Shown here one piece after another: positions 2 through 22,976 of a DNA stretch of 31,452 nt. The number at the start of each line of letters is the position of its first letter. Positions within the stretch are counted from its first letter, which is position 1. Position numbers and translations under genes: made by a program. Origin of the DNA: Dehalococcoidia bacterium (GTDB lineage: Bacteria; Chloroflexota; Dehalococcoidia; DSTF01; JALHUB01); NCBI GenBank assembly GCA_035527215.1, contig DATLAX010000002.1, positions 1 through 31,452 on the forward strand, given 5' to 3'. Under the pieces are notes generated by a model. The model was not told the origin of the DNA, ran no database searches, and worked only from the letters and a program-made list of their open reading frames with translations.

Positions 2-889
2 CTGCTTGTGCTCGTGGCCCTGGCGCTAGTCGGCGTGGCCGCTTCCTGCGGCGCAAGCAGCAACGGAAGCGACGGCGGTGAGGTGCGCGTTGTGACCAGC
101 CTGCGGCTCTTCGCCGATTTCATTCAGCACGTCGGCGGCGACCGCGTGCAGGTCACAGCACTGGTGCCGGCGGACGCCGACCCCCATACTTACGAGCCGG
201 TGCCCTCGCAGGTGGCAAAGGTGGCCGATGCCGACCTGGTCGTCGTCAACGGACTTGGGCTGGAGCAGACGCTGCATGACCTCATCTACAACAACGTGGG
301 AGGCGACGTGCCGGTCGTCCAGATGTCTGATGGCCTTTCCACTCTGGCAGGGAACGCGCAGGAGGGCGAAACGGTCAACCCCCATGTGTGGCTGAACGTC
401 CAGAACGCAATGCACTACGTGGAAAGCGTGAGAGACGGCCTCATAGCAGTTGACCCGGCAGGCGCCGGCGTCTACCGCTCGAACGCTGCCTCCTACCTGG
501 CGGAACTGGACGCGCTCGACAAGGAGACCGCCGCCGCTATTCAAACGATACCGCCGGAGCGCCGCAAGCTGGTCACCTTCCATGACGCCTACTCCTACCT
601 GGGGCAGCGCTACGGGCTGGAGATCGTCGGTTTCGTGCTGGAATCGGAAGGGAGAGAGGCGAGCGCGAAGGACCTGGCCAACCTGGCCGACGAGATACGC
701 GCCCAGCACGTTCCAGCCGTGTTCGGCGAGCCGGAGTTCAACCCCCGGCTCTTGGAGACGGTCGCGGAGGAAGCGGGGGTCCAGGTGAGACAACTGCTCA
801 GCGATGCCTATACCGAGAACGTCCACTCCTATGTCGATCTCATGCGCTTCAACGCGCAGCAACTGGTGAAAGGGCTTGGTTTGCCATGA
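2..889 (+). CDS. Zn/Mn ABC transporter substrate-binding lipoprotein (cluster A-I, TroA/ZnuA-like), 5'-truncated by window edge
   Basis: Frame is open to the window start. Hydrophobic signal ends in lipobox VAASC. Motifs ADPHTYEP, VVVNGLGLE, NPHVWL, TFHDAYSYL and LLSDAY give a His/His/His/Asp metal site. The stop overlaps the next ATG (ATGA). Confidence 0.93.
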   Translation: MLVLVALALVGVAASCGASSNGSDGGEVRVVTSLRLFADFIQHVGGDRVQVTALVPADADPHTYEPVPSQVAKVADADLVVVNGLGLEQTLHDLIYNNVGGDVPVVQMSDGLSTLAGNAQEGETVNPHVWLNVQNAMHYVESVRDGLIAVDPAGAGVYRSNAASYLAELDALDKETAAAIQTIPPERRKLVTFHDAYSYLGQRYGLEIVGFVLESEGREASAKDLANLADEIRAQHVPAVFGEPEFNPRLLETVAEEAGVQVRQLLSDAYTENVHSYVDLMRFNAQQLVKGLGLP

Positions 890-1692
890 GGGTCTTTGGA
901 CAAAGGCGCGAGGAAAACGCTCCCCCGAACGGCGCCGCCGTCGTTGTGGAGGGCTTGTGGGCCGGCTACGGCGAGCGAGGAGCGCTCCAGGGCATGGACT
1001 TCGAGGCGTCGCCGGCGAGCATGGTAGCGCTGGTCGGTCCCAACGGCTCCGGCAAGTCGACGCTGATCAAGGTGATCCTCGGCACCCACGCGGCATGGCG
1101 TGGTCGGGTGCGCATCTTCGGCAAGGAGCCCGGGCGCGTGCGCCACCTCATCGGCTACACGCCGCAGACAGAGATGGTCGACTGGGACTTCCCGGTCACC
1201 GTGCGCGAGGTAGTCACGATGGGGCGATTCGGACGCCTTGGCCCACTGCGCTGGCCCGGGGCGGCCGACCGGCGCATCGTCGATAAGTGCCTGGAGCGGA
1301 TGCGCCTCGCCGACCTGGCGAAGCGACAGATCGGCGAGCTCTCCGGCGGACAGCAGCGACGAGTCCTCATCGCTCGGGCGCTGGCGCAGGAGCCGCAGCT
1401 GCTACTCCTCGACGAGCCCATGGCCGGCCTGGACGCGACGATCCAGCACGAGCTGCTGTCGCTGTTCGAGGAACTGCGCGACGAGGGCAAGACGCTGGTA
1501 ATGGCCACACATGACCTCTCCTGCGTGAACTGCTGCTTCGACCGCGTCCTATTGATGAACCGTCGCAAGATCGCCTACGGCGAGCCGGAGAAAGTGTTCA
1601 CCAAGGAACTGCTCGATCAGGTCTTCGAGAGCCACCTGATAACGTTGCCGGTCGAGGGGGCGTTCTATCTGGATCATCACGGCCATGAGTGA
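886..1692 (+). CDS. Zn/Mn ABC transporter ATP-binding subunit (ZnuC/TroB-like)
   Basis: Walker A GPNGSGKST, signature LSGGQQRRV, Walker B LLLLDEP, H-loop ATHD; family motif IGYTPQ...DWDFPVTVREVV; His-rich C-terminus DHHGHE. Confidence 0.95.
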   Translation: MRVFGQRREENAPPNGAAVVVEGLWAGYGERGALQGMDFEASPASMVALVGPNGSGKSTLIKVILGTHAAWRGRVRIFGKEPGRVRHLIGYTPQTEMVDWDFPVTVREVVTMGRFGRLGPLRWPGAADRRIVDKCLERMRLADLAKRQIGELSGGQQRRVLIARALAQEPQLLLLDEPMAGLDATIQHELLSLFEELRDEGKTLVMATHDLSCVNCCFDRVLLMNRRKIAYGEPEKVFTKELLDQVFESHLITLPVEGAFYLDHHGHE

Positions 1693-2590
1693 CATCTGGA
1701 CCTGGCTGTCGGAACCGTTCCAGTACGCCTTCATGCAGCGGGCGCTGCTCGCCGTGGCGATGGTGAGCGTCGTTAGCGCCGTCATCGGCGCGTTCATCGT
1801 TCTCAAGGGGATGGCGTTCATCGGCGACGCCCTGGCCCACGCGTCCTTCGCCGGCGTGGCGATTGCCTTTGTGCTCGGCGGCAGCATCTACCTCGGCGCC
1901 GTGATTGCGGCTATTGCGACGGCGATGGCCATCGGCTACGTGGGTCGCCGGGCGCGCCTGAGCCTGGACACGGCGATCGGCATCCTCTTCGTCGGCGCGT
2001 TCGCGCTGGGCATCGTCATCATCAGCCGGCAGAGCAACTACACTGTGGACCTGTTCAGCTTTGTCTTTGGAAACGTGCTCGGCGTGGGCCGGCGCGATCT
2101 GCTTATCATCGGAGCGATGTCCGCCACGGTCATCGCCGTCGTGGCGGCATTCTACAAGGAGTTGCTCTTCTTCTCCTACGACCCGGAGATGGCGGCGGCG
2201 TCCGGGATACCGGTGCGCCTGCTTCACTACGGACTCCTGACGTTGATAGCTGTTTCGGCGGTGGTAGCCCTCAAGGCGGTCGGTATCGTGCTTGTCGTGG
2301 CGATGCTCGTGACGCCTGCCGCGACGGCTGCCCTGCTGGTGCGACGCCTTCACCTGATAATGATCGGTGGCGCCTTGTGTGGCCTCGCGTCGTCGGTCAT
2401 CGGGCTGTATGTCTCCTATTACGCATCCGTTGCCACGGGCGCAGCGATAGTGCTGGTGGCGACTTCCCTCTTCATGCTGGCGCTCATCTTCTCGCCGCAA
2501 CGCGGCCTCCTGGCAGCCATGCGTCGCCCGGCCGAGTTCTACGAGATGGAAAGGCGGCCGGCGCCCTCTACGCCGCCGGACATCGTCTGA
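1685..2590 (+). CDS. Zn/Mn ABC transporter permease (ZnuB/ABC-3 family)
   Basis: FQYAFMQRALL, GMAFIGDALAHASFAG, LFSFVFGNVLG, SYDPEMAAASG, AVGIVLVVAMLVTPAATA; many TM helices; overlaps the ATPase gene by 8 nt. Confidence 0.95.
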   Translation: MSDIWTWLSEPFQYAFMQRALLAVAMVSVVSAVIGAFIVLKGMAFIGDALAHASFAGVAIAFVLGGSIYLGAVIAAIATAMAIGYVGRRARLSLDTAIGILFVGAFALGIVIISRQSNYTVDLFSFVFGNVLGVGRRDLLIIGAMSATVIAVVAAFYKELLFFSYDPEMAAASGIPVRLLHYGLLTLIAVSAVVALKAVGIVLVVAMLVTPAATAALLVRRLHLIMIGGALCGLASSVIGLYVSYYASVATGAAIVLVATSLFMLALIFSPQRGLLAAMRRPAEFYEMERRPAPSTPPDIV

Positions 2591-2630
2591 GCGGCGTCGC
2601 TCCCGCGCATTTCTACCATCCGCTTCACGA

Positions 2631-2639
2631 TGTTATACT
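2631..2639 (+). promoter_or_regulatory. Putative extended -10 promoter for the hydrolase-dsbA-VKOR genes
   Basis: TG-T-TATACT (TGn plus near-consensus -10) in the intergenic region; weak -35 (TTCTAC) at 17-nt spacing. Confidence 0.5.
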
Positions 2640-2704
2640 GAGACCCGTTCACGAACCCCGGCGACCTGCGCTGGGGAATCGTGTTCAAAGGGGGGCAATC
2701 GAGC

Positions 2705-3652
2705 GTGCCGTCGCGGAAGCGTCTTTTTCTCTTTGCCGCCGTTGGACTCGGCACCGTCTGGAGCTACTCCAAGCGGGCCGTGCGTCGCTGGGAGGACATC
2801 GATCTGGCGGCAACGACGAAGCTGGGCCGCGTCGTCGAAGTTGACGGCGTCCAGATCCACTATGTCGAGGCAGGGGAGGGTCCTCCGCTAGTCCTGTTGC
2901 ACGGCCTTAACGGCTCCACCTTCAGCTTTCGTCTTCTGATGCCCTATCTGGCCCCGCATTTTCGCACGATCGCCCTCGATCTTATGGGTTTCGGCTATTC
3001 CGGCAGACCGCAAGAACGCGACTACTCGCTGGGGGCGCAGGCCCGCCTCGTCGCCGGCTTTCTCGACGCCCTGGACATAGAGAAAGCGTCCGTCCTCGGT
3101 CACTCGCTGGGCGGCGCCGTGGCGATGCACCTGGCGCTGGAGTCGCCTGAGCGCGTTGAGCGGCTCATTCTCGTATCGAGCGCCAGCGACAGCGAGACGC
3201 GACGCGGACTGCGCAGCTCTCGACTCGTGCGGCCGCTGCTGCCTGTCGTCGCCGCGTTCACCGTGCAGAACCAGCGTTTCCGTCGCATGTCGTTGCGGAG
3301 CGCCTGCTACGACCCGTCATTCGTCACCGCTGACATGCTGGAGGGATACATGGCGCCGACGCGTGTCAGGGGACATCTGCGCGCCCTCGGTTCCCTGATG
3401 GTCGACCGCCGGAAGGACGTGCCGCTCGACCCGTCGGCGATTCGTCAGCCGGCGCTCATCCTCTGGGGCGACGCCGACCGCTGGCTGCCGGCGTCGCACG
3501 GTGAGAGGCTGCGCGCGCTGGTGCCCAATTCACGGATGGCTGTAATCGAAAACGCGGGACACCTGGTGTTGGAGGAGCGACCGGAAGACGCCGCGCGCGC
3601 CGTGACCGCCTTCCTCCAGGAAGAGAACGTCGATGGGCAGCCGGTGGCTTGA
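2705..3652 (+). CDS. Alpha/beta-fold hydrolase with N-terminal membrane anchor
   Basis: LVLLHG oxyanion motif, DLMGFGYS, nucleophile GHSLGG, acid WGDAD, His AGHLV. GTG at 2705 follows AAGGGGGG; GTG at 2681 is an alternative start. Substrate not assignable. Confidence 0.9.
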   Translation: MPSRKRLFLFAAVGLGTVWSYSKRAVRRWEDIDLAATTKLGRVVEVDGVQIHYVEAGEGPPLVLLHGLNGSTFSFRLLMPYLAPHFRTIALDLMGFGYSGRPQERDYSLGAQARLVAGFLDALDIEKASVLGHSLGGAVAMHLALESPERVERLILVSSASDSETRRGLRSSRLVRPLLPVVAAFTVQNQRFRRMSLRSACYDPSFVTADMLEGYMAPTRVRGHLRALGSLMVDRRKDVPLDPSAIRQPALILWGDADRWLPASHGERLRALVPNSRMAVIENAGHLVLEERPEDAARAVTAFLQEENVDGQPVA

Positions 3653-3697
3653 TCGTGTGATGGGCGGGCTGCACACTAGTTAGCCGGGAGACAGCGA

Positions 3698-4429
3698 ATG
3701 CAACCACGGAAGTCGAGAAAGAGGCGGACGTCGGCGCGTGGACCGCGACCGTGGCTCCCTGTGGCCATCGTTGGAACGGCTGCGATCCTCGCCGTCGTTC
3801 TGATCGTCGTCTTCAGCAATGTAGGCGGCTCGTCGAGTCCGGGGCCCAAGGCCACGCCCGGCCCGACGGTCGCGGCGCCGCAGCACGGCGTCTCCCTGGG
3901 GCAGGACGATGCCCCCCTCACCATGGCCGAGTACTTCAGCTTTCAGTGTTCTCACTGCGGTGACTTCGCTCTGCAAACGGCGCCACAGATCGAAAGGGAC
4001 TTCGTCGACACGGGCAAGCTCAGGATTGAGTTCCATGCGCTCGGCAACGAAGGGGACCTGCTGCTGGCGTCCGAGGCTGCCGCCTGCGCCGGAGAGCAGA
4101 ACCGCTACGTCGAGTACTACAGATACGTGTTCGCCAATCGCGAGCGCGGCTTCGGGAAGGGCACGTTTCAGGAGTATGCGCGTGACCTGAAGCTCGACGC
4201 CACGGCATTCAACGCCTGCCTGGACTCCAACGAATACGGCGCAGAGATAGTGAATGAAACCAACCGGGCGATCCAGTTGAACCTGGGTACCCCATCCTTC
4301 TTCCTGGGCAAGACAGCGTCAATGCAGAGCAAGAGCCTTCCCTACAGCGGCGAGACCGCGATAATGGGAGCGGAGCCGTACGACGCCTTCAAGAAAGCCA
4401 TTGAGGACGCGCTCACAGAGGTGCAATGA
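3698..4429 (+). CDS. dsbA: Membrane-anchored DsbA-family thiol-disulfide oxidoreductase
   Basis: Basic N-terminus plus TM helix; LGQDDAPLTMAEYFSFQCSHC (CxxC); cis-Pro loop GTPSF; overlaps the VKOR gene (ATGA). Confidence 0.9.
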   Translation: MQPRKSRKRRTSARGPRPWLPVAIVGTAAILAVVLIVVFSNVGGSSSPGPKATPGPTVAAPQHGVSLGQDDAPLTMAEYFSFQCSHCGDFALQTAPQIERDFVDTGKLRIEFHALGNEGDLLLASEAAACAGEQNRYVEYYRYVFANRERGFGKGTFQEYARDLKLDATAFNACLDSNEYGAEIVNETNRAIQLNLGTPSFFLGKTASMQSKSLPYSGETAIMGAEPYDAFKKAIEDALTEVQ

Positions 4430-4935
4430 GAGAGCCTGAAGCGGAGGCGGACGAAGACGCCGGCGTGTACCCCGAACGTTCCTCGCGCTTCGTGGCCGTC
4501 CTCGTGGGCGTCCTGTCGCTGGCAGGCGCCGGCGTGGCGGGCTATCTCACCTACGTTCACTGGTTCGACAAGTCGATTGTCTGCGCCGGCTTCGATAGCT
4601 GCGCCGAGGTGGCACAGAGCGACTACGCGTGGATGTTGGGTGTGCCGGTGGCCTTCCTCGGGCTGCTGGGGTACGTCGCGCTGGCCGCTGTCGCCGCCTT
4701 CTGGCTCCGCGTCGGCGACCGCTTCGACGTCTGGCCGCTGCTGGCGATCTGGGGGATGAGCGTCGCCGGTGTTGCCTACTCCGCCTACCTGACTTACGTG
4801 GAGTTGCACGTGATCGACGCCGTCTGCCTCTGGTGCATGACGTCCGCCGCCATAATGACGGCCGTCTTCCTGGTAGCGACGGCCGGACTGCTCACACTGG
4901 GACGGGACGCGGGGCTCTTCGCGGACGAGGCGTAG
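4426..4935 (+). CDS. Vitamin K epoxide reductase (VKOR) family protein, DsbA re-oxidant
   Basis: Loop cysteines CAGFDSCAEVAQSDYA, GVPVAFLG and active-site CLWC; several TM helices; coupled to dsbA. Confidence 0.93.
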   Translation: MREPEAEADEDAGVYPERSSRFVAVLVGVLSLAGAGVAGYLTYVHWFDKSIVCAGFDSCAEVAQSDYAWMLGVPVAFLGLLGYVALAAVAAFWLRVGDRFDVWPLLAIWGMSVAGVAYSAYLTYVELHVIDAVCLWCMTSAAIMTAVFLVATAGLLTLGRDAGLFADEA

Positions 4936-5499
4936 TCAGGCCGTCCCGCGCAGCCCCAGCTCGTCGGCGATCCCCTTCAGCGCCTGCGTCACCTGCGCTA
5001 TGTGCTCGTTGAGGTCGACGCCCATCCCTTCCGCGCCCTTGACGATGTCCTCGCGGTTCACGGCGCGGGCGAACGCCTTGTCCTTCATCTTCTTGCGCAC
5101 AGACGACGCCTCCACGTCGAGGATGCTCTTGCTCGGCCGCACCAGCGCCACGGCGATGACGAAGCCGGAGAGCTCGTCGACGGCGTAGAGAGTCTTCTCC
5201 ATCATCGAGTCGCGTGACAGGTTCAGGTGCTCGGCGTGGCTGAGCGCCGCGCGGATGATCTCCTCCGGCACGCCGCGCTCACGGAGTATCTTCGCGCCTT
5301 CCTGAGGATGCTTGTCGAGCGTGGGGTGTATCTCGTAGTCGAAGTCGTGCAGCAGGCCGACGACGGCCCACTTCTCCTCGTCCTCGCCGAACTTGCGGGC
5401 GTAGTGCCGCATCGCCGCCTCGACGGCAAGGCCGTGCTTGCGCAGGCTATCGCTCTTCGTGTACTCGCACAGCAGTTCCCAGGCTTCGTCTCGATTCAT
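4936..5499 (-). CDS. HDIG/HD-domain metal-dependent phosphohydrolase
   Basis: Start MNRDEAWELL at 5499 after SD GGAGAGG; KHGLAVEAAM, GLLHDFDYE, KTLYAVDELSGF, KKMKDKAFA motifs. Confidence 0.9.
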   Translation of the reverse strand: MNRDEAWELLCEYTKSDSLRKHGLAVEAAMRHYARKFGEDEEKWAVVGLLHDFDYEIHPTLDKHPQEGAKILRERGVPEEIIRAALSHAEHLNLSRDSMMEKTLYAVDELSGFVIAVALVRPSKSILDVEASSVRKKMKDKAFARAVNREDIVKGAEGMGVDLNEHIAQVTQALKGIADELGLRGTA

Positions 5500-5572
5500 G
5501 TTCCTCTCCCGGCTGCAAAATCGATATCTCTCCGCACTTCCTCGCGGTGATGAGACACCCAGGATCGGCAAC

Positions 5573-5647
5573 GTAGCGGAGGGCTTTAGCCCTCCACGTC
5601 CGCGTACCGGCAAGACATCGACGCGGAAGGCTAAAGCCTTCCTCTAC
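5573..5647. repeat. REPIN: inverted pair of GTAG-type REP palindromes
   Basis: GTAG-C-GGAGGGC-TTTA-GCCCTCC (5573-5595, +) faces GTAG-A-GGAAGGC-TTTA-GCCTTCC (5625-5647, -). The two stems differ by a compensated base pair. Confidence 0.8.
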
Positions 5648-5668
5648 ATTGTCGAAAAAGCGCCCTGC

Positions 5669-6169
5669 CTATCCCCGAAGCGCCTGGGCGATGTCCATCA
5701 TGTGCTGCGCCTCGTGGTCCCCGCACGAACCCCCGATCATCTCCAGCGCCGAAGACATCCCGCCCTCGAAGGGGTTCGGCATCTTCTTCGTCAGCACCTC
5801 GTCCGGCGTCGAGGCGATAAGCTCGACGCCCTGCTCGTGCCCCTTGCGGAACTCCGCCAGCAGGTCGAATATCGCCTTCTCTTTCCGTATCTCCACCTGC
5901 TGATTGTTGAAGGCGTCGACGTCGAACCCCGCGGGCATCCCACCGCCACCGCCGCTGCTCGACATCGCGCGCTGCGCCATGCCGATGAAGAACGCTGGCG
6001 AAGCGCCCATCGACGCCAGGTGCGCGAAGATGTCCTTGACCGTCCACTCGGGCCCTTCTGCCGAGTAAACCGGTTTCGCCAGGTCGGCGTCGGTCAGGCC
6101 GGCCGCCATCTTCTCGGCGCGCTGCACGTTCAGCATCAAGGACTCCGACACGTCTTGTTTGCTTACCAT
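5669..6169 (-). CDS. DinB/YfiT-like (MDMPI N-terminal-type) four-helix metalloprotein
   Basis: Start MVSKQDV at 6169 after SD GGAGG; WTVKDIFAHLA, DVDAFNNQQV and DHEAQH give the His pattern of the DinB superfamily. Confidence 0.75.
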   Translation of the reverse strand: MVSKQDVSESLMLNVQRAEKMAAGLTDADLAKPVYSAEGPEWTVKDIFAHLASMGASPAFFIGMAQRAMSSSGGGGGMPAGFDVDAFNNQQVEIRKEKAIFDLLAEFRKGHEQGVELIASTPDEVLTKKMPNPFEGGMSSALEMIGGSCGDHEAQHMMDIAQALRG

Positions 6170-6334
6170 GGTCAACCCCCTCCGCGGGAAAGCGATTACT
6201 CTCCGAACCGGTGTCACCCCGCTCCAAGTTGTGCGGCGGCGGAAGCGCGCTCCCCAGCTATGCGCCGGGGGCAATAGGAGGATAGCGGACGCCGTCGGCA
6301 GACGCAAACCGGAGGCAAGATGTGACCGGCAGAG

Positions 6335-8012: not shown

Positions 8013-9851
<1,839 letters not shown>

Positions 9852-9911
9852 CTTCCTCCTCATCCGTCGAAGACTGGTTCCGGCTTACAGCGATCGTAAT
9901 CGTGCGAAGAG

Positions 9912-12098: not shown

Positions 12099-12281
12099 TT
12101 CGCACCTCCAAGACGCGCTTTGTTTCCTTGCTTTACTGCATTGTAGGCACGCAAAGTGTGCAAAAACAAGAGAAAGTACGCCGGAAAGCGTGACAAGATC
12201 GTGAAAGGTATGCGCCATTGACTGTCGGCGGCGCGTGCGGTCTAATCAATAGCCGCTACGACCTGTGGAAGGAGACCCAGC

Positions 12282-13223
12282 ATGCGTTTCGTGACACTCC
12301 AGGAAGACGGCGTCGCCCGTCCGGGCATCGTGGCCGGCGACTACGTGATCGACATACCGGGGACTTCGGGCGCAATGAATGTGCCGCAGCTCTCGGAATG
12401 CCCGGACATCCTGACGCTGATTCGGCTCGGCGAACCCGCCGTCGAACAGGCGCGACAACTCCGCGCGGCGGTGGAGCGGGATATCGCCGGCGGCAGAGCG
12501 AAGGATCTGATGGCGCGAGGGCTCCTCCGTCCGCTGGAGGGGCTGAAGCTGATGGCGCCGGTGCCGGACCCTTCGAAGGTCGTCGCCATCGGCCTGAACT
12601 ACCGCGACCACGCTCGTGAGCAGGGCACGCCGATTCCGGACCAGCCGATCATCTTCGCCAAGTTTCCCACGTCCGTCATCGGCCCCGGCGATACGATTAC
12701 GTGGGACCCGGCGCTTACGCAGCAGGTCGATTATGAGGCGGAGCTGGCAGTGGTGATTGGAGAGACGGCCCGCAACGTCAAGGAAGAGGATGCCTACTCG
12801 GTCGTCGCCGGCTACACCTGCGGCAACGACGTGAGCGCCCGCGACCTCCAGTTCGGCGACCGTCAGTGGGTGCGCGGCAAGAGCCTCGACACGTTCTGCC
12901 CGCTGGGGCCGGTTCTCGTGACACCCGATGAGGTCCCCGACCCGCAGAGCCTGGCGATTCGCGCCGTGCTCAACGGCGAGGTGATGCAGGACTCGCGCAC
13001 GAGCGAGATGATCTTCGGCGTGCGGGAACTCATCGCCTTCGCCAGCCGCGCCTTCACGCTTCTGCCCGGCGACGTCATTCTCACGGGCACGCCGCACGGC
13101 GTCGGCGTTTTCCGCCAGCCGCCCGTCTTCTTGAAGGACGGCGACCGGATTGAGATCGAAATCGAGAACATCGGCCGCCTCGAGAACGTTTGCCGGACAA
13201 CGAAGGCGGCCGGCGGTCTGTAG
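12282..13223 (+). CDS. Fumarylacetoacetate hydrolase family protein
   Basis: IGLNYRDHARE, IFAKFPTS, DYEAELAVVIG, GNDVSARDLQ, GKSLDTFCPLGP, PGDVILTGTP; SD GAAGGAG. Confidence 0.95.
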   Translation: MRFVTLQEDGVARPGIVAGDYVIDIPGTSGAMNVPQLSECPDILTLIRLGEPAVEQARQLRAAVERDIAGGRAKDLMARGLLRPLEGLKLMAPVPDPSKVVAIGLNYRDHAREQGTPIPDQPIIFAKFPTSVIGPGDTITWDPALTQQVDYEAELAVVIGETARNVKEEDAYSVVAGYTCGNDVSARDLQFGDRQWVRGKSLDTFCPLGPVLVTPDEVPDPQSLAIRAVLNGEVMQDSRTSEMIFGVRELIAFASRAFTLLPGDVILTGTPHGVGVFRQPPVFLKDGDRIEIEIENIGRLENVCRTTKAAGGL

Positions 13224-13243
13224 GGGCGCACAGCCGTGCGCCC
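13220..13243 (+). repeat. Single GTAG-type REP palindrome overlapping the FAA hydrolase stop codon
   Basis: GTAG-GGGCGCAC-AGCC-GTGCGCCC; the TAG of GTAG is the gene's stop codon. Confidence 0.7.
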
Positions 13244-13264
13244 GCCCGAAGAGATGCGCCCCTG

Positions 13265-13906
13265 CTAGCGTAGCGGCGAGTAGGGCAGCGTGAACACGGG
13301 CACCATTCGCTCGACGGGCGCGTTCTCCCGCACCGCGCGGAAGAATCGGTTCGTCCGTTCGTCCGACGGCTGATAGCCGGAGAGGCGCATCGACCCTTTC
13401 CAGATGTCCGTCACCTCGTTCTGATTGCCGGTGATCGTCCGCCAGCTCGCGACCACCGGCAGACCGGCTGCCACGCCCTCCATCGCCGCGACGAAGAAGG
13501 GCATCCTTCCCGGCGCTATCTCCATCTTTGCCAGCATGTACGTTCCCAGCGGCTTCTCCGCCGTCTCCTTCCATGCGTCGTGCAGCTTCCCGGCCAGCAG
13601 CGGGGTCAGCGGCTCCAGGAGGCGTGTCCGGCGCTTCGGCGCCAGCTCCTCCAGCCGTGCCTGGTACTCCAGCCAGGGCTCGGCGTGCTGCGCCTGGTCG
13701 CGGAACTCCTCGAACGCCGCCATGTTGTCGAACTCGAGCACCTGGATGACCTGACAGAACGACTCGATGTCGTTGTACCAGGCGGCGGCCAGACGGAAGC
13801 CCATGCGCTCCAGGGGCAACAGTTTCTCCTGCGCGAAGGCGACGAAGTTGTCGAGCGTCTCCGGGCTCGGCGGCTCAAGCGTCAGGGTCTCTTCGAGATA
13901 GATCAT
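13265..13906 (-). CDS. Tandem NIPSNAP-like dimeric alpha/beta barrel protein
   Basis: Two roughly 100-aa halves (GFRLAAAWY...QVIQVLEFDNMAAFEEFR; VVASWRTITGNQNEVTDIW) ending in PYSPLR; SD AGGAGGAG overlaps the yjbQ stop. Confidence 0.7.
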   Translation of the reverse strand: MIYLEETLTLEPPSPETLDNFVAFAQEKLLPLERMGFRLAAAWYNDIESFCQVIQVLEFDNMAAFEEFRDQAQHAEPWLEYQARLEELAPKRRTRLLEPLTPLLAGKLHDAWKETAEKPLGTYMLAKMEIAPGRMPFFVAAMEGVAAGLPVVASWRTITGNQNEVTDIWKGSMRLSGYQPSDERTNRFFRAVRENAPVERMVPVFTLPYSPLR

Positions 13907-16029: not shown

Positions 16030-17016
16030 CTATTGTCCACATCCTCCGGGATCCAGAATATCGGGGTTCCTCCCAACTTCCTCTTGGGACTTCCCCCATC
16101 TGCCCCGTCCAAACGAAGCGAGCGACTCATCCATGAGCGAGAGCAGGTGCTCCTTCTCGTCCGGCAGGCGATACCCCTCCCAGTCCTGCCGGAAAATCGG
16201 CGCATTCATGAAGTGGTCAAAGCAGATGTTGCCGCTGATCTCCAGCGCTTCGACCATCCGCCGCAACTCGTCGAGCATCTCGACCGGGTTCATCGGGAAG
16301 AACGCGTCGCGGCTGTACTCGTCGTACAGAGGCGTGCCGGGCGTGACCGTGAGCGGCCGCACGCGGACGTAGCTGGGGTTGGTGGCGTTCAAGACGGCAG
16401 CCGTGTTCCGCGCATGCTGCTCAGTCATCTCCCAGCCGCCGAGGCCCGGCATCACGTACTCAGAGAGCTCGAAGCCCGCGGCCATCGCCTTCCGGCCGGC
16501 ATCGATCATCTCCCGCGACGTCGCGCCCTTCTTGACACGTGTCAGGACCTCGTCGTCGCCGCTCTCAAGCCCCATATGCAGGCGGCTGAGCCCCGCCCCG
16601 TGAAGCTTTCGCAGGTCGGCGAGGTCCTTCTTCAGCACGGTCTTCGCCCGCGCATAAGAAGTGATGCGTTCGATGGACGGGAACGACTCGCGCAAATAAA
16701 GGATGATTTCGACCAGGTCGTCGGTCTTGACGATGATGGCATTGGAGTCGGCCAGGAAAGCCGTGCGCGGCTCGACCGCCCGTCCGAGACTGCGCATCTC
16801 GTCGGCGGCCGCGCGCAGTGCGTCGATGTCGCCCTTCACCTCGTCCACCGATCGCAGCATGCCTTTTCGGGGCAGGTCCTTGTAGACGGCGCAGAAGGTG
16901 CAGTAGTTCCACGGGCACCCCCGCATGACGCGAATCAGCAACGAGCGCGCCTCGCTGGGGGGGCGTATTGGCGGCAGCTCATATGTGAAGGCTTGTCCGT
17001 AGCTGGGTTCAGTCAT
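16030..17016 (-). CDS. Radical SAM protein (stand-alone core, no B12 or SPASM domain)
   Basis: IRPPSEARS, GCPWNYCTFCAVYK (CxxxCxxC), AFLADSN, MGLESGDD, VMPGLGG; no C-terminal Cys cluster. Confidence 0.93.
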   Translation of the reverse strand: MTEPSYGQAFTYELPPIRPPSEARSLLIRVMRGCPWNYCTFCAVYKDLPRKGMLRSVDEVKGDIDALRAAADEMRSLGRAVEPRTAFLADSNAIIVKTDDLVEIILYLRESFPSIERITSYARAKTVLKKDLADLRKLHGAGLSRLHMGLESGDDEVLTRVKKGATSREMIDAGRKAMAAGFELSEYVMPGLGGWEMTEQHARNTAAVLNATNPSYVRVRPLTVTPGTPLYDEYSRDAFFPMNPVEMLDELRRMVEALEISGNICFDHFMNAPIFRQDWEGYRLPDEKEHLLSLMDESLASFGRGRWGKSQEEVGRNPDILDPGGCGQ

Positions 17017-17244: not shown

Positions 17245-17273
17245 TTGACCCCTAATGGGGCAAGCACTATCTT
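17245..17273 (+). promoter_or_regulatory. Putative sigma70-type promoter heading the 17.4-24.8 kb plus-strand run
   Basis: TTGACC-N17-TATCTT about 100 nt upstream of the ATG at 17372. Confidence 0.6.
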
Positions 17274-17371
17274 TTGCCCACCGGAAGAGGCGCGAGCCCC
17301 CGGGTAACCGGTCGCCGCCGGGTGATTCCGGCCGGCTTCGCCGTCATGGTCTGCAAAAGGAGAAGATGGAT

Positions 17372-18814
17372 ATGGCAATCCGCACACCGGACGAATACAG
17401 ACAGAGTCTCAGGGACGGCCGCAGCGTCTACATGTTCGGCGAGAAGGTGGAGGACGTAACGACTCACCCCATACTCAAGATCGGCACGGAGACGGCCGCG
17501 GGCGACTTCGTCCTCACGGAATCGAAGGACCCTGCGGTACGCGACCTCTTTGTCGCGGCGCACCCGGAGACCGGCGAGCCGATAAGCCGCTACTTCACCA
17601 CGCCGAAGACGCCGCAGGACATCGACATGCGCATGCAAATGATACAGCAGTCGATCCGGCTCACCGGCGGTCTCCCCTTCGGCAAGGACATCGGCACCGA
17701 CTGTTTGAACGCCATGATGGCCACCGCCGAGCAGATGGGGAAGCCGGAGTACAAGGAGCGCGCCCGCGCCTACCTGGAGCACCTGCGCGCCAACGACCTC
17801 ATGCTCTGCGGCGCTGTCACCGACGTCAAGGGCGATAGGAGCAAAGTGCCCTCCGCCCAGATCCACCCGGACTACTACGTCCACGTCGTCGACGAGACGA
17901 AGGAAGGTATCATCGTTAAGGGCGCCAAGATCCACATCACCGGCGCTCCGGCGGCCAACGAGCTCCTCGTCGTGCCGACGCGCCAGATGCGCGAGAACGA
18001 GGCCGACTACGCCGTCTCCTTCGCCATCCCCGTTGCGACCAAGGGCGTCCACCTCGTCTGCCGCCCGGGGCACGGCGAGCGCTCACCGGCCGAGTTCCCG
18101 TCCAACCGGCCAAACCGCGGTCTCGTCGAGGCGATGATCATCTTCGACAACGTGCTCGTCCCCTGGGACCGCGTCTTCCTCTGCCGCGAATGGCAATACT
18201 CCATGCTCCTCGCCTATACCTTCGCTACCTACCACCGCTTCACCGCGGTCTCCTACAAGATACCCATCGTGGAGATCATGGCCGGCATCGCGCTGGCGAT
18301 GGCGGAGGTCAACGGGATCGAAAGAATCGGCCACATCCGCGGCAAGCTGTCGGAGGTCATAGCCTACGTCGAGACTCTCAAGGCGCTGGGCACCGCTGCC
18401 ATCAAGTCGCCCGTCTACTACGGCGAGATCTGCGTGCCGAGCCCGCTGATCACCAACATGGCGAAGCTGCACTTCGCGAAGAACTACCACGAGATCATCA
18501 AGACGATCCAGGACATCGCCGGCGGCATCATCACCACCATGCCGACCTACCTCGACTGGCAGAACCCGGACATTCACGATTACCTCGACCACTACCTGGG
18601 CGGCTCGGCGAAGTACACGAGCGAGGAGCGAATGCGCGTCATCCAAATGACGCGCAACATGGTAGCATCCGCCGATAGCGCCTCCATGGAGGTGACCACC
18701 GTCCACGCCGAAGGCTCCATGGAAGCGCAACGCATGATGATCCTTATCGAATCGCCGCTGAAGCAGTACCGCGACCTGGCGCTGATGGCGTCGGGCGTTC
18801 AGCCAAAGGACTGA
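17372..18814 (+). CDS. 4-hydroxybutyryl-CoA dehydratase (AbfD) / 4-hydroxyphenylacetate 3-hydroxylase (HpaB) family flavoprotein lacking the AbfD Fe-S cysteines
   Basis: VYMFGEKVED, GAVTDVKGDRS, KGAKIHITG, DYAVSFA, FDNVLVPWDRVFLC, YHR, QDIAGG, EERMRV, HAEGS..AQR; ATG at 17372 after AAGGAG. Confidence 0.9.
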   Translation: MAIRTPDEYRQSLRDGRSVYMFGEKVEDVTTHPILKIGTETAAGDFVLTESKDPAVRDLFVAAHPETGEPISRYFTTPKTPQDIDMRMQMIQQSIRLTGGLPFGKDIGTDCLNAMMATAEQMGKPEYKERARAYLEHLRANDLMLCGAVTDVKGDRSKVPSAQIHPDYYVHVVDETKEGIIVKGAKIHITGAPAANELLVVPTRQMRENEADYAVSFAIPVATKGVHLVCRPGHGERSPAEFPSNRPNRGLVEAMIIFDNVLVPWDRVFLCREWQYSMLLAYTFATYHRFTAVSYKIPIVEIMAGIALAMAEVNGIERIGHIRGKLSEVIAYVETLKALGTAAIKSPVYYGEICVPSPLITNMAKLHFAKNYHEIIKTIQDIAGGIITTMPTYLDWQNPDIHDYLDHYLGGSAKYTSEERMRVIQMTRNMVASADSASMEVTTVHAEGSMEAQRMMILIESPLKQYRDLALMASGVQPKD

Positions 18815-18833
18815 AGCGGGGTCAAAAAACAGC

Positions 18834-18857
18834 GTAGCCGAGACTTTCCAGTCTCGG
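18834..18857 (+). repeat. Single GTAG-type REP palindrome (third sequence class)
   Basis: GTAG-CCGAGACT-TTCC-AGTCTCGG: perfect 8-bp stem directly after GTAG, intergenic. Confidence 0.7.
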
Positions 18858-18901
18858 CGGCACCCGACCCGCTCTGGGTACCTGATCGAGGGAGGAGTGC
18901 G

Positions 18902-20341
18902 ATGGCGTCGCCAAACAAGAAGAGCAGGCTATTCGGCGAGAAGATGTCGCGGCGGAGACTGTTGGAGACGGGCGCGGTCGCGGCCATAGGTGTCGCCGGT
19001 GCCGGCCTCGCCGCAGCGTGTACGGAAGAAGACGGGGACAAAAGCATCACTCCTGCCGCCAGCGTGCCCGCCGCCGCCGCGACCGCCTTCCGCAGCCCGA
19101 CCGGGTCGCCGACGCCGGGCTCGAGCTCCATCATCAGCCTCGGCGGCAATCCGGAGGGCATTGCGGAGGTAGCCCCCGGCACCATCTTCTTCCCCTACTT
19201 CGGCAACGTCATCGCCCTCCAGACGGATGACGGCATCGTCATCGTCGACACGTCTCTCCAGGGAAACGGCCCGCCCATCGTCGAGGAGCTGCGAAAACGG
19301 ACTGATCTGCCCGTCAAGACGATCATTTACACTCATGGCCACGTCGATCACGTCGGCGGCACGGATGCCTTCCTCAAGGACGCCGACGAACGCGGCCACG
19401 AACGCCCCACCGTTATCGGCCACGAGGGCGTCATCCCGCGGTTCCAGCGCTATGAGCGCATGGCTGGCTGGATTCGCTTTCTAAATGCCCAGCAATGGGG
19501 CGTCGCTCCGCCGGACCCGTCCCGTCCCGCCCCCGTCCCGGTCTTCGTCTACCCTGACACTACCTACCACGACCGCACCTCAGTCGAAGTCGGGGGTGAG
19601 ACTTTCGAGCTGATCTACGGCATGGGCGAGACCGACGACCACACCTGGGTCTGGGCGCCGGAACGGAAGATCGCGGTTGCCGGGGACTTCTTCACCTGGG
19701 CCTGCCCGAACGTCGGCAATCCCTGGAAGGTCCAGCGCTATACCCGGGGTTGGGCGGAGGGCCTGGAAGCCATCGCCGACAAACGACCCTCTATCCTGCT
19801 GCCCGGCCACGGCCCGCCCATCGAAGGCGAGGACAACGTGCAGACTGCCTGCTTCGACGTCGCCGCCTATCTGCGTTCCATCGATGATCAGGTCGTCGAG
19901 CGCATGAACAAGGGACAGTGGCTGGAGCAGATACTGCGCGAGGTAGAGCCCCCCGCCGATCTCGCCGCCAAGCCCTATCTCCAGCCCATATACGGCCACC
20001 CGAAGTTCATCGTGCAGGCCGTCTGGCGGCAATACGGCGGCTGGTATGACGGCAACCCCGCCGACTTCTTCGCTGCCGCAACGGCTGACCAGGCCACCGA
20101 GATCGTCAAGCTCGTGGGCGTGAGTGCGCTTCTCTCCCGTGCCCGCGACCTCCACACAACCGGCGATCTGCCGCTGGCCTGCCATCTGGTCGACTGGGTA
20201 TGCAAGGTCGAGCCCGAGAACGCCGAGGCGCGGGCTCTGCAACGTGACCTCTTCCAGGCGCGCAGCGAGGTCGAAGCGAACATGATGGCGCGCAACGTGT
20301 TCAAGGGAGCCGCCGCGGAGGCGGAGAAGCACCTGACCTGA
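18902..20341 (+). CDS. Tat-exported lipoprotein, metallo-beta-lactamase-fold alkyl/aryl-sulfatase family (SdsA/BDS1-like, with dimerisation domain)
   Basis: SRRRLL Tat motif and LAAAC lipobox; THGHVDH (HxHxDH); GETDDHTWVW, GDFF...PNVGNP, LLPGHG, PIYGHP, YGGWYDGNPA. Confidence 0.88.
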   Translation: MASPNKKSRLFGEKMSRRRLLETGAVAAIGVAGAGLAAACTEEDGDKSITPAASVPAAAATAFRSPTGSPTPGSSSIISLGGNPEGIAEVAPGTIFFPYFGNVIALQTDDGIVIVDTSLQGNGPPIVEELRKRTDLPVKTIIYTHGHVDHVGGTDAFLKDADERGHERPTVIGHEGVIPRFQRYERMAGWIRFLNAQQWGVAPPDPSRPAPVPVFVYPDTTYHDRTSVEVGGETFELIYGMGETDDHTWVWAPERKIAVAGDFFTWACPNVGNPWKVQRYTRGWAEGLEAIADKRPSILLPGHGPPIEGEDNVQTACFDVAAYLRSIDDQVVERMNKGQWLEQILREVEPPADLAAKPYLQPIYGHPKFIVQAVWRQYGGWYDGNPADFFAAATADQATEIVKLVGVSALLSRARDLHTTGDLPLACHLVDWVCKVEPENAEARALQRDLFQARSEVEANMMARNVFKGAAAEAEKHLT

Positions 20342-20361
20342 GTCGACGGGAGCCCGGAACT

Positions 20362-21501
20362 ATGGAGCGCGCCGAGCGCGAAGCAGGTGTCCTCGGAAGG
20401 CCGCTATCGCGGCGGCGTCTCCTTCAGGCCGCTGCAGCATCCGCCATGATGGCCGCAGGCCTCGCCCCGACGGCATGCGACGACGAGGGCCGAGAAAGGG
20501 AGTCCAACATGGCTGAGGCGCCAACGGTCGAAAAGACAGCGGCCGGCGGGTCGGTGGTTGAGACGATGACCGGCCCTGTCGCCACCTCCGACCTCGGTTT
20601 CACGCTCATGCACGAGCACATCATTGTCCAGGCAGAAGGCGTCGTCCGCAACTTCCCCAGCGTCTGGGATGAGCAGGCGGAACTGGACAAGGCCGTCGAG
20701 ACGCTCACGACCCTCAAGGCAAGGGGCGTCGACACCATCGTCGATCCAACGGTACTCGGCATCGGCCGCGATGTCCCTCGCCTGCTGCCGGTCGTCGAGA
20801 AGGCGGGGATTCAGGTGGTGGTTGCCACCGGCCTCTACACTTTCAACGAGCTGCCGTCCTACTTCCTGAGCCGGGAGATTGACGAGATGGCCGGTCTCTT
20901 CGTCGCCGACATCACCGACGGCATCCAGGGGACGAACGTGAAAGCCGCGATCCTGAAGTGCGCCACCGACGCGCCCGGCGTCACCCCGGGCGTGGAGAAG
21001 GTGTTGCGGGCGGTCGCGCGCGCCCACCTGCGCACGGGCGCTCCCATCACGACCCACACGCATGCCGCCACGCAACGCGGTTTGGATCAGCAGCGGGTCT
21101 TCGCCGAGGAGGGCGTCGACCTGACTCGCGTCATCATCGGCCACAGCGGCGACAGCGAAGACCTCGACTACCTCACGAAGCTGCTCGACGCCGGCTCCTA
21201 CATCGGCATGGACCGCTTCGGCCTCGACATCTTCCTGCCTGAGGAGAAGCGCATCGCCACCGTCGCCGCGCTCTGCCGGATGGGCCACACGGAGCGCATG
21301 GTCCTCTCCCACGACGCCATGGTCTACTTCGACATGTACAAGCCGGAGGTGGTCAAGGGATTTGCGCCCAATTGGAGCCACTACCGCATCGTCGATCACA
21401 TCATCCCGGCGCTGCTGGAGGCCGGCGTCAGTCAGGCGCAAATCGATGCGATGACGCGAAAGAACCCGCGTCGCATCTTCGAGAACGTGAGAACTTACTA
21501 G
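20362..21501 (+). CDS. Tat-signal lipoprotein, phosphotriesterase family (PTE/PHP/PLL amidohydrolase)
   Basis: SRRRLL and APTAC; GFTLMHEH, ILKCATD (carboxylated Lys), TTHTH, IGHSGD, GMDRFG, LSHDA; second SD-preceded ATG at 20509. Confidence 0.92.
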   Translation: MERAEREAGVLGRPLSRRRLLQAAAASAMMAAGLAPTACDDEGRERESNMAEAPTVEKTAAGGSVVETMTGPVATSDLGFTLMHEHIIVQAEGVVRNFPSVWDEQAELDKAVETLTTLKARGVDTIVDPTVLGIGRDVPRLLPVVEKAGIQVVVATGLYTFNELPSYFLSREIDEMAGLFVADITDGIQGTNVKAAILKCATDAPGVTPGVEKVLRAVARAHLRTGAPITTHTHAATQRGLDQQRVFAEEGVDLTRVIIGHSGDSEDLDYLTKLLDAGSYIGMDRFGLDIFLPEEKRIATVAALCRMGHTERMVLSHDAMVYFDMYKPEVVKGFAPNWSHYRIVDHIIPALLEAGVSQAQIDAMTRKNPRRIFENVRTY

Positions 21502-21905: not shown

Positions 21906-22976
21906 ATGACCACATCCGACGCCTTCGAATCGCTGACTGGCAAGCTTGGCTTCCCCGGATCCTCCCTGCTGCGTTCCGTCCTCGAAGCGATGATGACAGA
22001 GGATGAAGCCAAGCTCGTCGATGCTCTGCCCGGCTCCATTAGCGAGGTTGCCGAAAAGACCGGCGTGCCGGAACAGGAGGTGCGAAAGAGCCTGGATGCG
22101 CTGTTCTACAAAGGCGTCATCTTTCCCAAGGGCGATTTCGCTCACCGCGACTACTACCGTTTCGCCAGGCACATAATGCAGCTGCATGACGCCGCTCAGG
22201 CCAGCAGCAGCCTGGACGTTGTGAGAGACCGTGACTTCTTTCAGAAGTGGCACGACTTCTGCAAGGAAGAGATGTACCCGCGCTTCGGCGCAATGTTCAA
22301 AGGCGCCACCGCCCGCATCAGCCGCGTCATTCCCGCCTACAAAGCGATCGAAGGGTTGCCGGACATACTGCCCTGCGAGAACTACCACGAGATCCTCAAG
22401 GCGCAGGACGTGATCGCCGTCGTGCCCTGCTCTTGCCGCATTCGCACGACCGCCGTCGGCGAGCAGTGCGCCCATGCCGCCGAGGCGGAGACCTGGCACT
22501 GTCTCCAGTTCGGGCGCGGCGCCGAATACGTCATCGACCGCGGTTCCGGCAGGCGGCTGACCGTCGACCAGGCTATCGCGCTCTGCGATGAGATCGAGGA
22601 GGACGGCCTCATCCACCGCTGGGCGAACAACGCCAACATGACCGGCATCAACACCAGCTGCAACTGCTGTCGCGACTGCTGCGAGGAGTACGTGTCGCTG
22701 GACATGGCCGGTATACCGGTGGCGGATTGGTGGGAGAAGAGCCGCTACGAGGCTTTCGTCGATGACCTCGAGTCCTGCAGCGGTTGCCAGGACTGCATCG
22801 AGCGCTGTCAGTTCGACGCCATCAGTATGTATCGAAACAAGGACGACGATCTCAAGGCTGCGGTCGACGCTGGGAAGTGCTTCGGTTGCGGCACCTGCAT
22901 CGTCGGCTGCCCATACGGCTCGCTGAAGATGCGCACTGCGAGGTCGCCGGAATCGATACCGGGCGCCGTTGCCTGA
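21906..22976 (+). CDS. 4Fe-4S dicluster protein with N-terminal HTH-like region and central Cys-rich domain
   Basis: C-terminal CSGCQDCIERCQF and CFGCGTCIVGCP; central PCSCR, HCLQFG, SCNCCRDCC; N-terminal ISEVAEKTGVPEQEVRKSLDALFYKG. Confidence 0.88.
   Translation: MTTSDAFESLTGKLGFPGSSLLRSVLEAMMTEDEAKLVDALPGSISEVAEKTGVPEQEVRKSLDALFYKGVIFPKGDFAHRDYYRFARHIMQLHDAAQASSSLDVVRDRDFFQKWHDFCKEEMYPRFGAMFKGATARISRVIPAYKAIEGLPDILPCENYHEILKAQDVIAVVPCSCRIRTTAVGEQCAHAAEAETWHCLQFGRGAEYVIDRGSGRRLTVDQAIALCDEIEEDGLIHRWANNANMTGINTSCNCCRDCCEEYVSLDMAGIPVADWWEKSRYEAFVDDLESCSGCQDCIERCQFDAISMYRNKDDDLKAAVDAGKCFGCGTCIVGCPYGSLKMRTARSPESIPGAVA

Follow-up and report, generated by a model that had tools for sequence, protein, structure and literature searches.

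The window analyzed here is a 31,452-nucleotide stretch from a Dehalococcoidia bacterium (GenBank assembly GCA_035527215.1, contig DATLAX010000002.1, positions 1 to 31,452 of the forward strand), and the gene in question, located at 17372..18814 on its plus strand, encodes a putative flavoprotein of 480 amino acids (aa) with the N-terminus MAIRTPDEY. The start codon ATG 17372 is favored over ATG 17366 because of its spacing from the ribosome-binding site GGAGA (17359..17363, plus strand, 9 nt 5' of ATG 17372) and because of the lengths and coverage of the orthologs (476-483 aa, with 99-100% of the query covered). The protein consists of the Pfam domains HpaB_N (PF11794, 1.8e-80) and HpaB C-terminal (PF03241, 1.7e-52), and an ESM Atlas feature search returned the same Pfam families only. 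Its relatives of solved structure in a phmmer search include the 4-hydroxybutyryl-CoA dehydratase (4HBD) AbfD (1u8v, E-value 1.5e-74), the Nitrosopumilus 4HBD (6vjr, 2.2e-68), and the HpaB protein of Thermus (2e-52), and the name 4-hydroxybutyryl-CoA dehydratase stands on many JGI entries for its orthologs. The Pfam families of acyl-CoA dehydrogenases (ACADs; PF02771, PF02770, and PF00441) gave no match to the 480-aa protein at E <= 0.001, and searches with its C-terminal part or half at E up to 10 found PF03241 only and no ACAD family; precomputed PF02770 marks described as "faint" are attached to some orthologs.

Four residues (C99, C103, C299, and H292) ligate the iron-sulfur cluster of AbfD/4HBD, and T190, E257, Y296, and E455 are further residues important for 4HBD activity, as described for the archaeal enzyme (preprint, bioRxiv 10.1101/2020.02.05.935528). 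We mapped these positions onto the query by its phmmer alignment to 1u8v and counted conservation in 52 orthologs, each from a different species, which are referred to below as the clade. In the segment TASCFQRCVGMD versus TGGLPFGKDIGTD, C99 is replaced by P102 and C103 by D106, each present in 52/52 clade members; the codons for P102-F103-G104-K105-D106, the counterpart of C99-F-Q-R-C103 in AbfD, occupy 17675..17689 (plus strand, as all codons given here). The AbfD stretch YHRQSYGGCK (H292-R-Q-S-Y296-G-G-C299-K300) reads YHRFTAVSYK in the query (H288-R289-F-T-A292-V-S-Y295-K296, 18233..18259), so that H292, R293, and K300 are kept as H288, R289, and K296, while Y296 becomes A292 and C299 becomes Y295; all five of these query residues are invariant in the clade (52/52). 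The third rewritten motif, RTESMHG versus VTTVHAE (T442...H445-A-E447, 18695..18712), substitutes T442 for E455 and E447 for A460 and keeps H458 as H445. T190 is retained at the same number (17939..17941, 52/52), as is E257 in the form of E253 (18128..18130, 51/52). Thus, a single ligand of four (H288) and only T190 and E253 of the T190/E257/Y296/E455 set remain. The preliminary description of this DNA, made from the sequence alone, had reported the three motif changes; the 1u8v alignment reproduces them, the orthologs show P102, D106, H288, A292, and Y295 to be invariant, and Y296 is missing as well. Both Y296 and E455 of AbfD are reportedly needed for radical formation, which generates a flavin semiquinone (Zhang et al. 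2015), so the missing pair argues against radical dehydration.

Further conserved features of the query include D110, invariant in the clade (52/52), and the TDxKGDR motif, which is common to AbfD and the query and not found in HpaB. The only invariant cysteines of the clade are C146 and C271, of which C271 is shared with AbfD and has no ligand role there; C230 and C111 occur in 49/52 and 44/52 members, respectively. An alternative cluster built from these cysteines was judged unlikely, as none of the four is conserved in the wider group of Cys-less relatives described below.

The AlphaFold2 model of the protein, built from a 102-row alignment, has a predicted local distance difference test score (pLDDT) of 96.4. 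Structural comparison of the full model by VIA-align gave a Z-score of 44.8 with 1u8v (root-mean-square deviation 2.2, 472 residues), 44.2 with 6vjr, approximately 41 with the Thermus thermophilus HpaB (TtHpaB), and approximately 22 with many ACADs, whose C-termini lie opposite model residues 463-467. To map E447, a version cut after S449 was refolded (pLDDT 95.7) and the comparison was repeated. The residue opposite model residue 449 is 462 in AbfD (1u8v), 378 in both 3mdd and 1udy (medium-chain ACAD, MCAD), 403 in 8sgp (MCAD in precursor numbering), 370 in 1jqi (rat short-chain ACAD, SCAD), 369 in 1buc (butyryl-CoA dehydrogenase, BCD), and 394 in 2vig (human SCAD). By these aligned ranges, on which the cut and the full model agree, E447 falls on A460 of AbfD and, in seven ACAD structures, on E376 of MCAD, E368 of SCAD, and E367 of BCD, the catalytic bases of these ACADs, which stand on the loop ahead of the last ACAD helix. 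A glutamate occupies this position in 50/52 clade members, and the surrounding sequence, HAEGSMEAQR, is similar to IFEGANEIQR in an ACAD of the same genome.

The distribution of this glutamate was examined in a maximum-likelihood tree of 102 sequences (LG+G4, quick search), the root of which was not inferred. The query's clade (19 rows, support 100) is nested within a Cys-less group of 45 rows, the sister of the 47-row AbfD clade (SH-aLRT 99); the Cys-less group itself has an SH-aLRT of 88, and support below 95 on deep branches of this tree is to be read with care. Both groups together are split from the HpaB-like rows with a support of 99. The protein thus falls outside the HpaB-like rows and outside the 47-row clade to which the CxxxC/H...C sequences belong. 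Cysteine is present at the C103 column in 37/47 and at the C299 column in 40/47 AbfD-clade rows and at neither column in any of the 45 Cys-less rows. Glutamate at the A460 column shows the opposite pattern: 19/19 rows of the query's clade, 17/26 other Cys-less rows, 0/47 AbfD-clade rows, and 2/10 HpaB-like rows, and it is also present in the HpaB-like representative P0259 outside the tree. The cysteine ligands and the glutamate are therefore mutually exclusive, the latter being found in 36/45 Cys-less and 0/47 AbfD-clade rows. The deep-branching HpaB-like sequences P0208, P0245, and P0259 have the glutamate at the ACAD base column within the motifs FSEGS, FAEGP, and FAEGS, respectively, and its presence in these proteins suggests that it is ancestral in the superfamily.

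With the HpaB-like rows as an outgroup, the simplest history would be one in which the query's lineage never had a cluster. The preliminary description spoke of cysteines that had been lost; given the Cys-less sister group and the retained ACAD-type glutamate, absent from all 47 AbfD-clade rows, we find this wording unsupported, and it is simpler to assume that the cluster was never present. In one representative-library sequence, P0207 (825 aa), EtfA (PF01012 + PF00766) is naturally fused with a domain of the AbfD family, which lacks H292. Since this domain is of the Cys-containing type, the fusion was set aside as direct evidence on the clade.

The clade is widespread and uniform. A word-indexed search identified more than 120 clusters that are 64-92% identical to the query and almost always 476-483 aa long; in an exhaustive library of 50% representatives the entire clade collapses into one representative (65% identity), followed by the next relative at 45%; and in species-representative genomes it was found in approximately 52 species at 60-94% identity. 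The hosts comprise approximately 20 metagenome-assembled genomes of Dehalococcoidia/Chloroflexota, Syntrophales and Smithellaceae, Desulfatitalea and other Desulfobacterales, and Desulfomonilia, and more rarely Acidimicrobiia (two), Acidobacteriota (one), and Promethearchaeota (one Asgard archaeon). The only cultured strain among these species is Desulfatitalea alkaliphila M08but, with its ortholog at L045:6001-7434. Most of the clade belongs to lineages of anaerobes (Syntrophales, Smithellaceae, Desulfatitalea, Dehalococcoidia, and one Promethearchaeota). COX1 is absent in four of the six carrier genomes checked (the own genome of the query and 3/5 others), and one complete carrier chromosome has neither COX1 nor the flavin reductase family PF01613; the own genome has no heme-copper oxidase match and possesses cytochrome bd. 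Judging from these sequence relatives, the protein is a member of a conserved, tight family, not a decayed AbfD.

The own genome (1.87 Mb, 90.6% complete) encodes three members of the family, the query gene included. The first paralog (L090:874-2322, minus strand, contig C179) is a canonical AbfD with the motifs CCFQRC, YHRQSYGGCK, and VESIHGAG and carries all four cluster ligands as well as Y296 and E455. The second (L092:820-2631, minus strand, contig C174) is Cys-less, is 38% identical to the query, and has the motifs HRLTAATYK and IHAEGS; as listed, its open reading frame (ORF) has a long N-terminal extension, and its true start is likely at MIRTPEQY. Each of five other carrier genomes encodes one to three Cys3His-type paralogs, so that a canonical AbfD paralog is present in 6/6 genomes examined, and the query protein is therefore not a degraded version of the 4HBD of the cell. 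The own genome further encodes EtfAB and 13 ACAD paralogs, indicating that acyl-CoA metabolism is prominent in this organism. On a metagenome contig, a second HpaB/AbfD-family gene (L007:10278-11732, plus strand) lies 0.8 kb downstream of a clade member and is followed by a small AF_0334-family gene.

In the window, the clade gene is preceded by a divergent radical SAM gene (16030..17016, minus strand, PF04055), with a beta-lactamase-like gene also upstream, and followed on the plus strand by an MBL/alkylsulfatase-type gene and a phosphotriesterase-family (PTE) gene (18902..21501, both assigned by Pfam). These neighbors are given as context only, the radical SAM gene without a shown functional link. 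The full arrangement occurs only in Dehalococcoidia at >=81% identity; the radical SAM neighbor is confined to Dehalococcoidia relatives at >=85% identity, and the MBL gene adjoins the clade gene only in relatives at >=81%. The PTE gene is found near the clade gene in other arrangements at 74-75% identity (L021 and L004); the PTE of the window has a Tat-type export leader and is probably extracellular. In the spacer between the clade gene and the divergent radical SAM gene, a consensus scan gave one sigma-70-like promoter match (TTGACC-17-TATCTT, 17245..17273, plus strand), compared with 0.5 matches expected, which is no evidence of function, and a riboswitch sought in the approximately 100-nt leader was not found, there being no Rfam match within the window. 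A strong hairpin (GCCGAGACT / AGTCTCGGC) at 18836-18860, 20 nt past the stop codon, has a GTAG head like that of REP elements and no T-run; the region 18831-18865 folds with about -17.6 kcal/mol. Elsewhere in the window, the 442-aa ORF at 12246-13574 (minus strand) has no Pfam family at E <= 0.001, and the 616-aa ORF at 8013-9863 (minus strand) joins a homocysteine S-methyltransferase domain and a methylenetetrahydrofolate reductase domain in a single protein.

A scan of 137 genes up to two positions away from the clade gene in 38 further loci gave as the commonest neighbor families PHP (8, all in one lineage), HDOD (5, in the same lineage), and AMP-binding (4), followed by 3-hydroxyacyl-CoA dehydrogenase (4), nitroreductase (4), branched-chain-type ABC permease (4), and 4HBT thioesterase (2). 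In three Syntrophales/Deltaproteobacteria loci (L029, L032, and L055), a fatty-acid-CoA ligase gene of the AMP-binding family precedes the clade gene on the same strand by approximately 40 nt, and in L057 such a gene lies one gene downstream, after a 264-nt gap. In the Desulfatitalea group the neighbors are an acetoacetate-CoA ligase, a 4HBT thioesterase, and a 3-hydroxyacyl-CoA dehydrogenase, and in L004 an ACAD and a family III CoA-transferase lie downstream. This neighborhood signal is modest and partly lineage-bound, and it points to CoA-ester metabolism. The frequent lack of any partner fits a self-contained, non-redox reaction.

The preliminary description also stated that no reductase partner is encoded nearby, and indeed the ORFs of the window include neither PF01613 nor a nitroreductase; PF01613 is likewise not among the 25 commonest families of the 137 neighbors. 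The only PF01613 gene of the own genome lies on contig C45 beside three ACAD-fold genes (L001, L099, L100, and L105 for the four genes together; 321-6255, all on the same strand within 6 kb), a set that could represent a two-component ACAD-fold monooxygenase. A missing neighbor reductase is, however, weak evidence either way. The Fe-S protein at 21906-22976 (plus strand; 356 aa, with a C-terminal 2x[4Fe-4S] ferredoxin domain and an N-terminal part of approximately 280 aa without a Pfam family) had been named as a possible electron source for the flavoprotein. A homolog recurs near the clade gene in close relatives (L014, L018, and L020) and in one Thermodesulfobacteriota locus (L050), and a link between the two genes is seen only there.

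Taken together, we consider it rather probable that the clade protein is a cluster-free FAD enzyme that performs ACAD-type chemistry on an acyl thioester, as either an isomerase/lyase or a dehydrogenase. Of the options offered in the preliminary description, the acyl-CoA isomerase or dehydrogenase type is the better one, whereas the reductase-fed FADH2 monooxygenase is less favored in view of the active-site triad, the model scores, and the tree. In the proposed mechanism, E447 would abstract the C2 proton of the acyl thioester, after which the flavin N5, flanked by T190 and E253, would participate. The outcome might be a non-redox 1,3-proton shift or elimination, as in a vinylacetyl-CoA isomerase, or else a hydride transfer by a dehydrogenase/enoyl-CoA reductase using the electron-transferring flavoprotein of the cell; the isomerase-like option is preferred because the gene usually stands alone. 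The space vacated by the [4Fe-4S] cluster would be lined by the invariant polar residues K105, D106, H288, R289, Y295, and K296, which may bind the distal polar end of the substrate, most likely a short, polar-substituted acyl-CoA. We infer that the protein binds FAD and acts on a CoA ester, as well as how E447 participates and which type of reaction results. The protein is an uncharacterised variant within a known superfamily, and the new result is the retained ACAD catalytic glutamate.

Several observations weigh against this reading. The equivalence of E447 was obtained from the ends of aligned ranges and not from a residue-by-residue superposition. A global hhalign comparison with the ACADs of the own genome (97.9% probability) set the ACAD C-terminus on query residues 400-434 with no reliable confidence, and a local hhalign comparison of the last 106 residues with ACADs gave nothing (probability 0.2); we regard the structural range mapping as the better evidence for the C-terminal register. 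No operon partner is conserved across the clade, the commonest neighbor families occurring in 4-8 of 38 loci and partly in a single lineage, and the nitroreductase-family gene adjacent in 4 loci is a possible flavin reductase. Finally, our search of the literature found no assay of any protein from the clade or the wider Cys-less group, and no solved structure of the Cys-less group was among the matches of the phmmer structure search.

In one rival explanation, the protein would still be a gamma-eliminating enzyme. Such a 4-hydroxyacyl-CoA dehydratase, or a lyase acting on a better leaving group, would use D106, H288, and Y295 in place of the cluster, as a general acid or a mononuclear metal site. 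The three residues are invariant (52/52) and stand at the positions of C103, H292, and C299, three of the four ligands, although conservation of D106 does not extend to the wider Cys-less group. The lyase reading is kept open by BbuA, a flavin-only ACAD-like enzyme that is reported to eliminate trimethylamine from C4 of gamma-butyrobetainyl-CoA to yield crotonyl-CoA, and of which 4HBD has been named a mechanistic analog (bioRxiv 10.1101/2021.01.25.428109). The PTE-family gene that stays near the clade gene through rearrangements in Dehalococcoidia also fits the lyase explanation. Many PTE-family enzymes are lactonases and would yield hydroxy-acids, but the Tat-type leader places this PTE probably outside the cell. 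Considering further that the Y296/E455 pair is absent and that a canonical AbfD already exists in every genome checked, we regard gamma-elimination by this protein as unlikely. A non-catalytic remnant of AbfD (a pseudoenzyme) could account for the absence of three ligands and two catalytic residues, but this is extremely improbable for a protein that keeps its full length and 60-94% identity across phyla, has invariant polar active-site residues and a conserved glutamate at the ACAD base position, and is modeled with a pLDDT of 96.

The oxygenase component of a two-component FADH2/O2-dependent monooxygenase of the HpaB/TcpA type, supplied by a generic or remote flavin reductase, would share the Pfam domains and the fold (TtHpaB Z-score of approximately 41). 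One PF01613 reductase and cytochrome bd are both encoded in the own genome, and a nitroreductase-family gene is adjacent in 4/38 other loci. Two-component oxygenases can take free reduced flavin, so the lack of a neighboring reductase is not decisive. However, the HpaB catalytic triad R100/Y104/H142 in TtHpaB numbering (PMC10537072) reads F103/I107/G147 in the phmmer alignment of the query to 2yyg, and the scores for the equivalog models TIGR02309 (206.3 bits, cut-off 480.2) and TIGR02310 (145.8 bits, cut-off 885.2) are far below their cut-offs. The tree places the protein on the AbfD side of the split at 99, the hosts belong mostly to anaerobe lineages, one of them with a complete genome devoid of PF01613 and COX1, and PF01613 is missing from the 25 commonest neighbor families and in the own genome sits elsewhere, beside three ACAD-fold genes. 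This explanation thus appears quite unlikely, and the earlier claim that neither standard annotation fits holds: the ligand set and the Y296/E455 pair of AbfD and the triad and equivalog tests of HpaB all failed. A dehydrogenase acting on an acyl or aminoacyl group tethered to a carrier protein, rather than on a CoA ester, was considered since the top ACAD-fold matches depend on carrier proteins (FkbI, Z-score 23.1; AnaB, 22.7; ColB1, 22.4) and SgcC of the HpaB family acts on a substrate bound to a peptidyl carrier protein (title of 4oo2). Yet SCAD ties with these matches at 22.8, Z differences below 1 being ties, no carrier-protein, nonribosomal peptide synthetase, or polyketide synthase family is among the commonest neighbor families, and the genomes are small with no evident biosynthetic cluster around the gene; we consider the carrier-protein explanation very unlikely.

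Within the favored reading of a cluster-free ACAD-type enzyme, the clade protein is probably a third enzyme type in the superfamily. A broader and more tentative proposal is that the whole Cys-less "HxEGS" group might constitute a third functional class of the HpaB/AbfD superfamily, an ancient, mostly anaerobe lineage that would have kept the ancestral ACAD glutamate, never gained the Fe-S cluster, and isomerised functionalised short acyl-CoAs, or eliminated at their C4, without a cluster, by means of flavin and a His-Asp-Tyr-Lys-Arg pocket; in this scenario AbfD would be derived, having exchanged the glutamate for the cluster. If the glutamate is indeed a base, one scaffold supports three catalytic solutions (a Glu base, Fe-S/radical chemistry, and a flavin hydroperoxide), and the origin of the radical dehydratase becomes testable. 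Among syntrophs, sulfate reducers, and soil/sediment Dehalococcoidia, the gene is highly conserved and hardly varies in length, so that its product probably acts in a widespread step of anaerobic acyl-CoA metabolism that has gone unrecognised. There is also a practical consequence for annotation. KEGG K14534 is used in metagenome surveys as a marker of 4-hydroxybutyrate CO2-fixation cycles (e.g., PMC10645885), and clade proteins, which lack both the cluster and the Y296/E455 pair, should not count as 4-hydroxybutyryl-CoA dehydratases; under that name they give rise to wrong pathway calls. The two groups can be told apart by a simple rule, namely cysteine at the C103 and C299 columns for AbfD versus glutamate at the A460 column for the Cys-less proteins.

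Compared with known systems, the query is most similar to AbfD (1U8V) and the 4HBD 6vjr, with which it shares approximately 30% identity over the full length, the same domain pair, and the same fold. T190, E257, H292, R293, K300, and TDxKGDR of AbfD are kept, in contrast to C99, C103, C299, Y296, and E455, which are not found in the query, and to A460, which is replaced by glutamate; moreover, AbfD forms its own clade, whereas the query belongs to a separate sister clade that coexists with canonical AbfD in the same genomes. The HpaB proteins (Thermus thermophilus 2YYG-2YYJ and Escherichia coli 6QYI) have the same Pfam domains and fold (Z-scores of approximately 40-41), but the R100/Y104/H142 triad is not in the query, which scores below the equivalog cut-offs and stands across the best-supported split of the tree. 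BbuA is a mechanistic analog only, as a flavoenzyme that eliminates from C4 of an acyl-CoA and whose description includes no iron-sulfur cluster. Within the ACAD superfamily it represents another branch and shares approximately 10% identity with 4HBD (bioRxiv 10.1101/2021.01.25.428109). The ACADs (pig/human MCAD 3MDD/1UDY/8SGP, rat SCAD 1JQI, and Megasphaera BCD 1BUC) differ from the query by their low identity (13-18%, with no significant ACAD Pfam match), by approximately 45 additional query residues that follow the long helix ending at GG385 and precede the helix in front of E447, and by the query's N-terminal extension and C-terminal helix typical of HpaB/AbfD. Nevertheless, they have the same three-domain fold (Z-scores of approximately 21-23 over approximately 310-330 residues), neither they nor the query have a metal cluster, and their catalytic glutamate is matched by E447.

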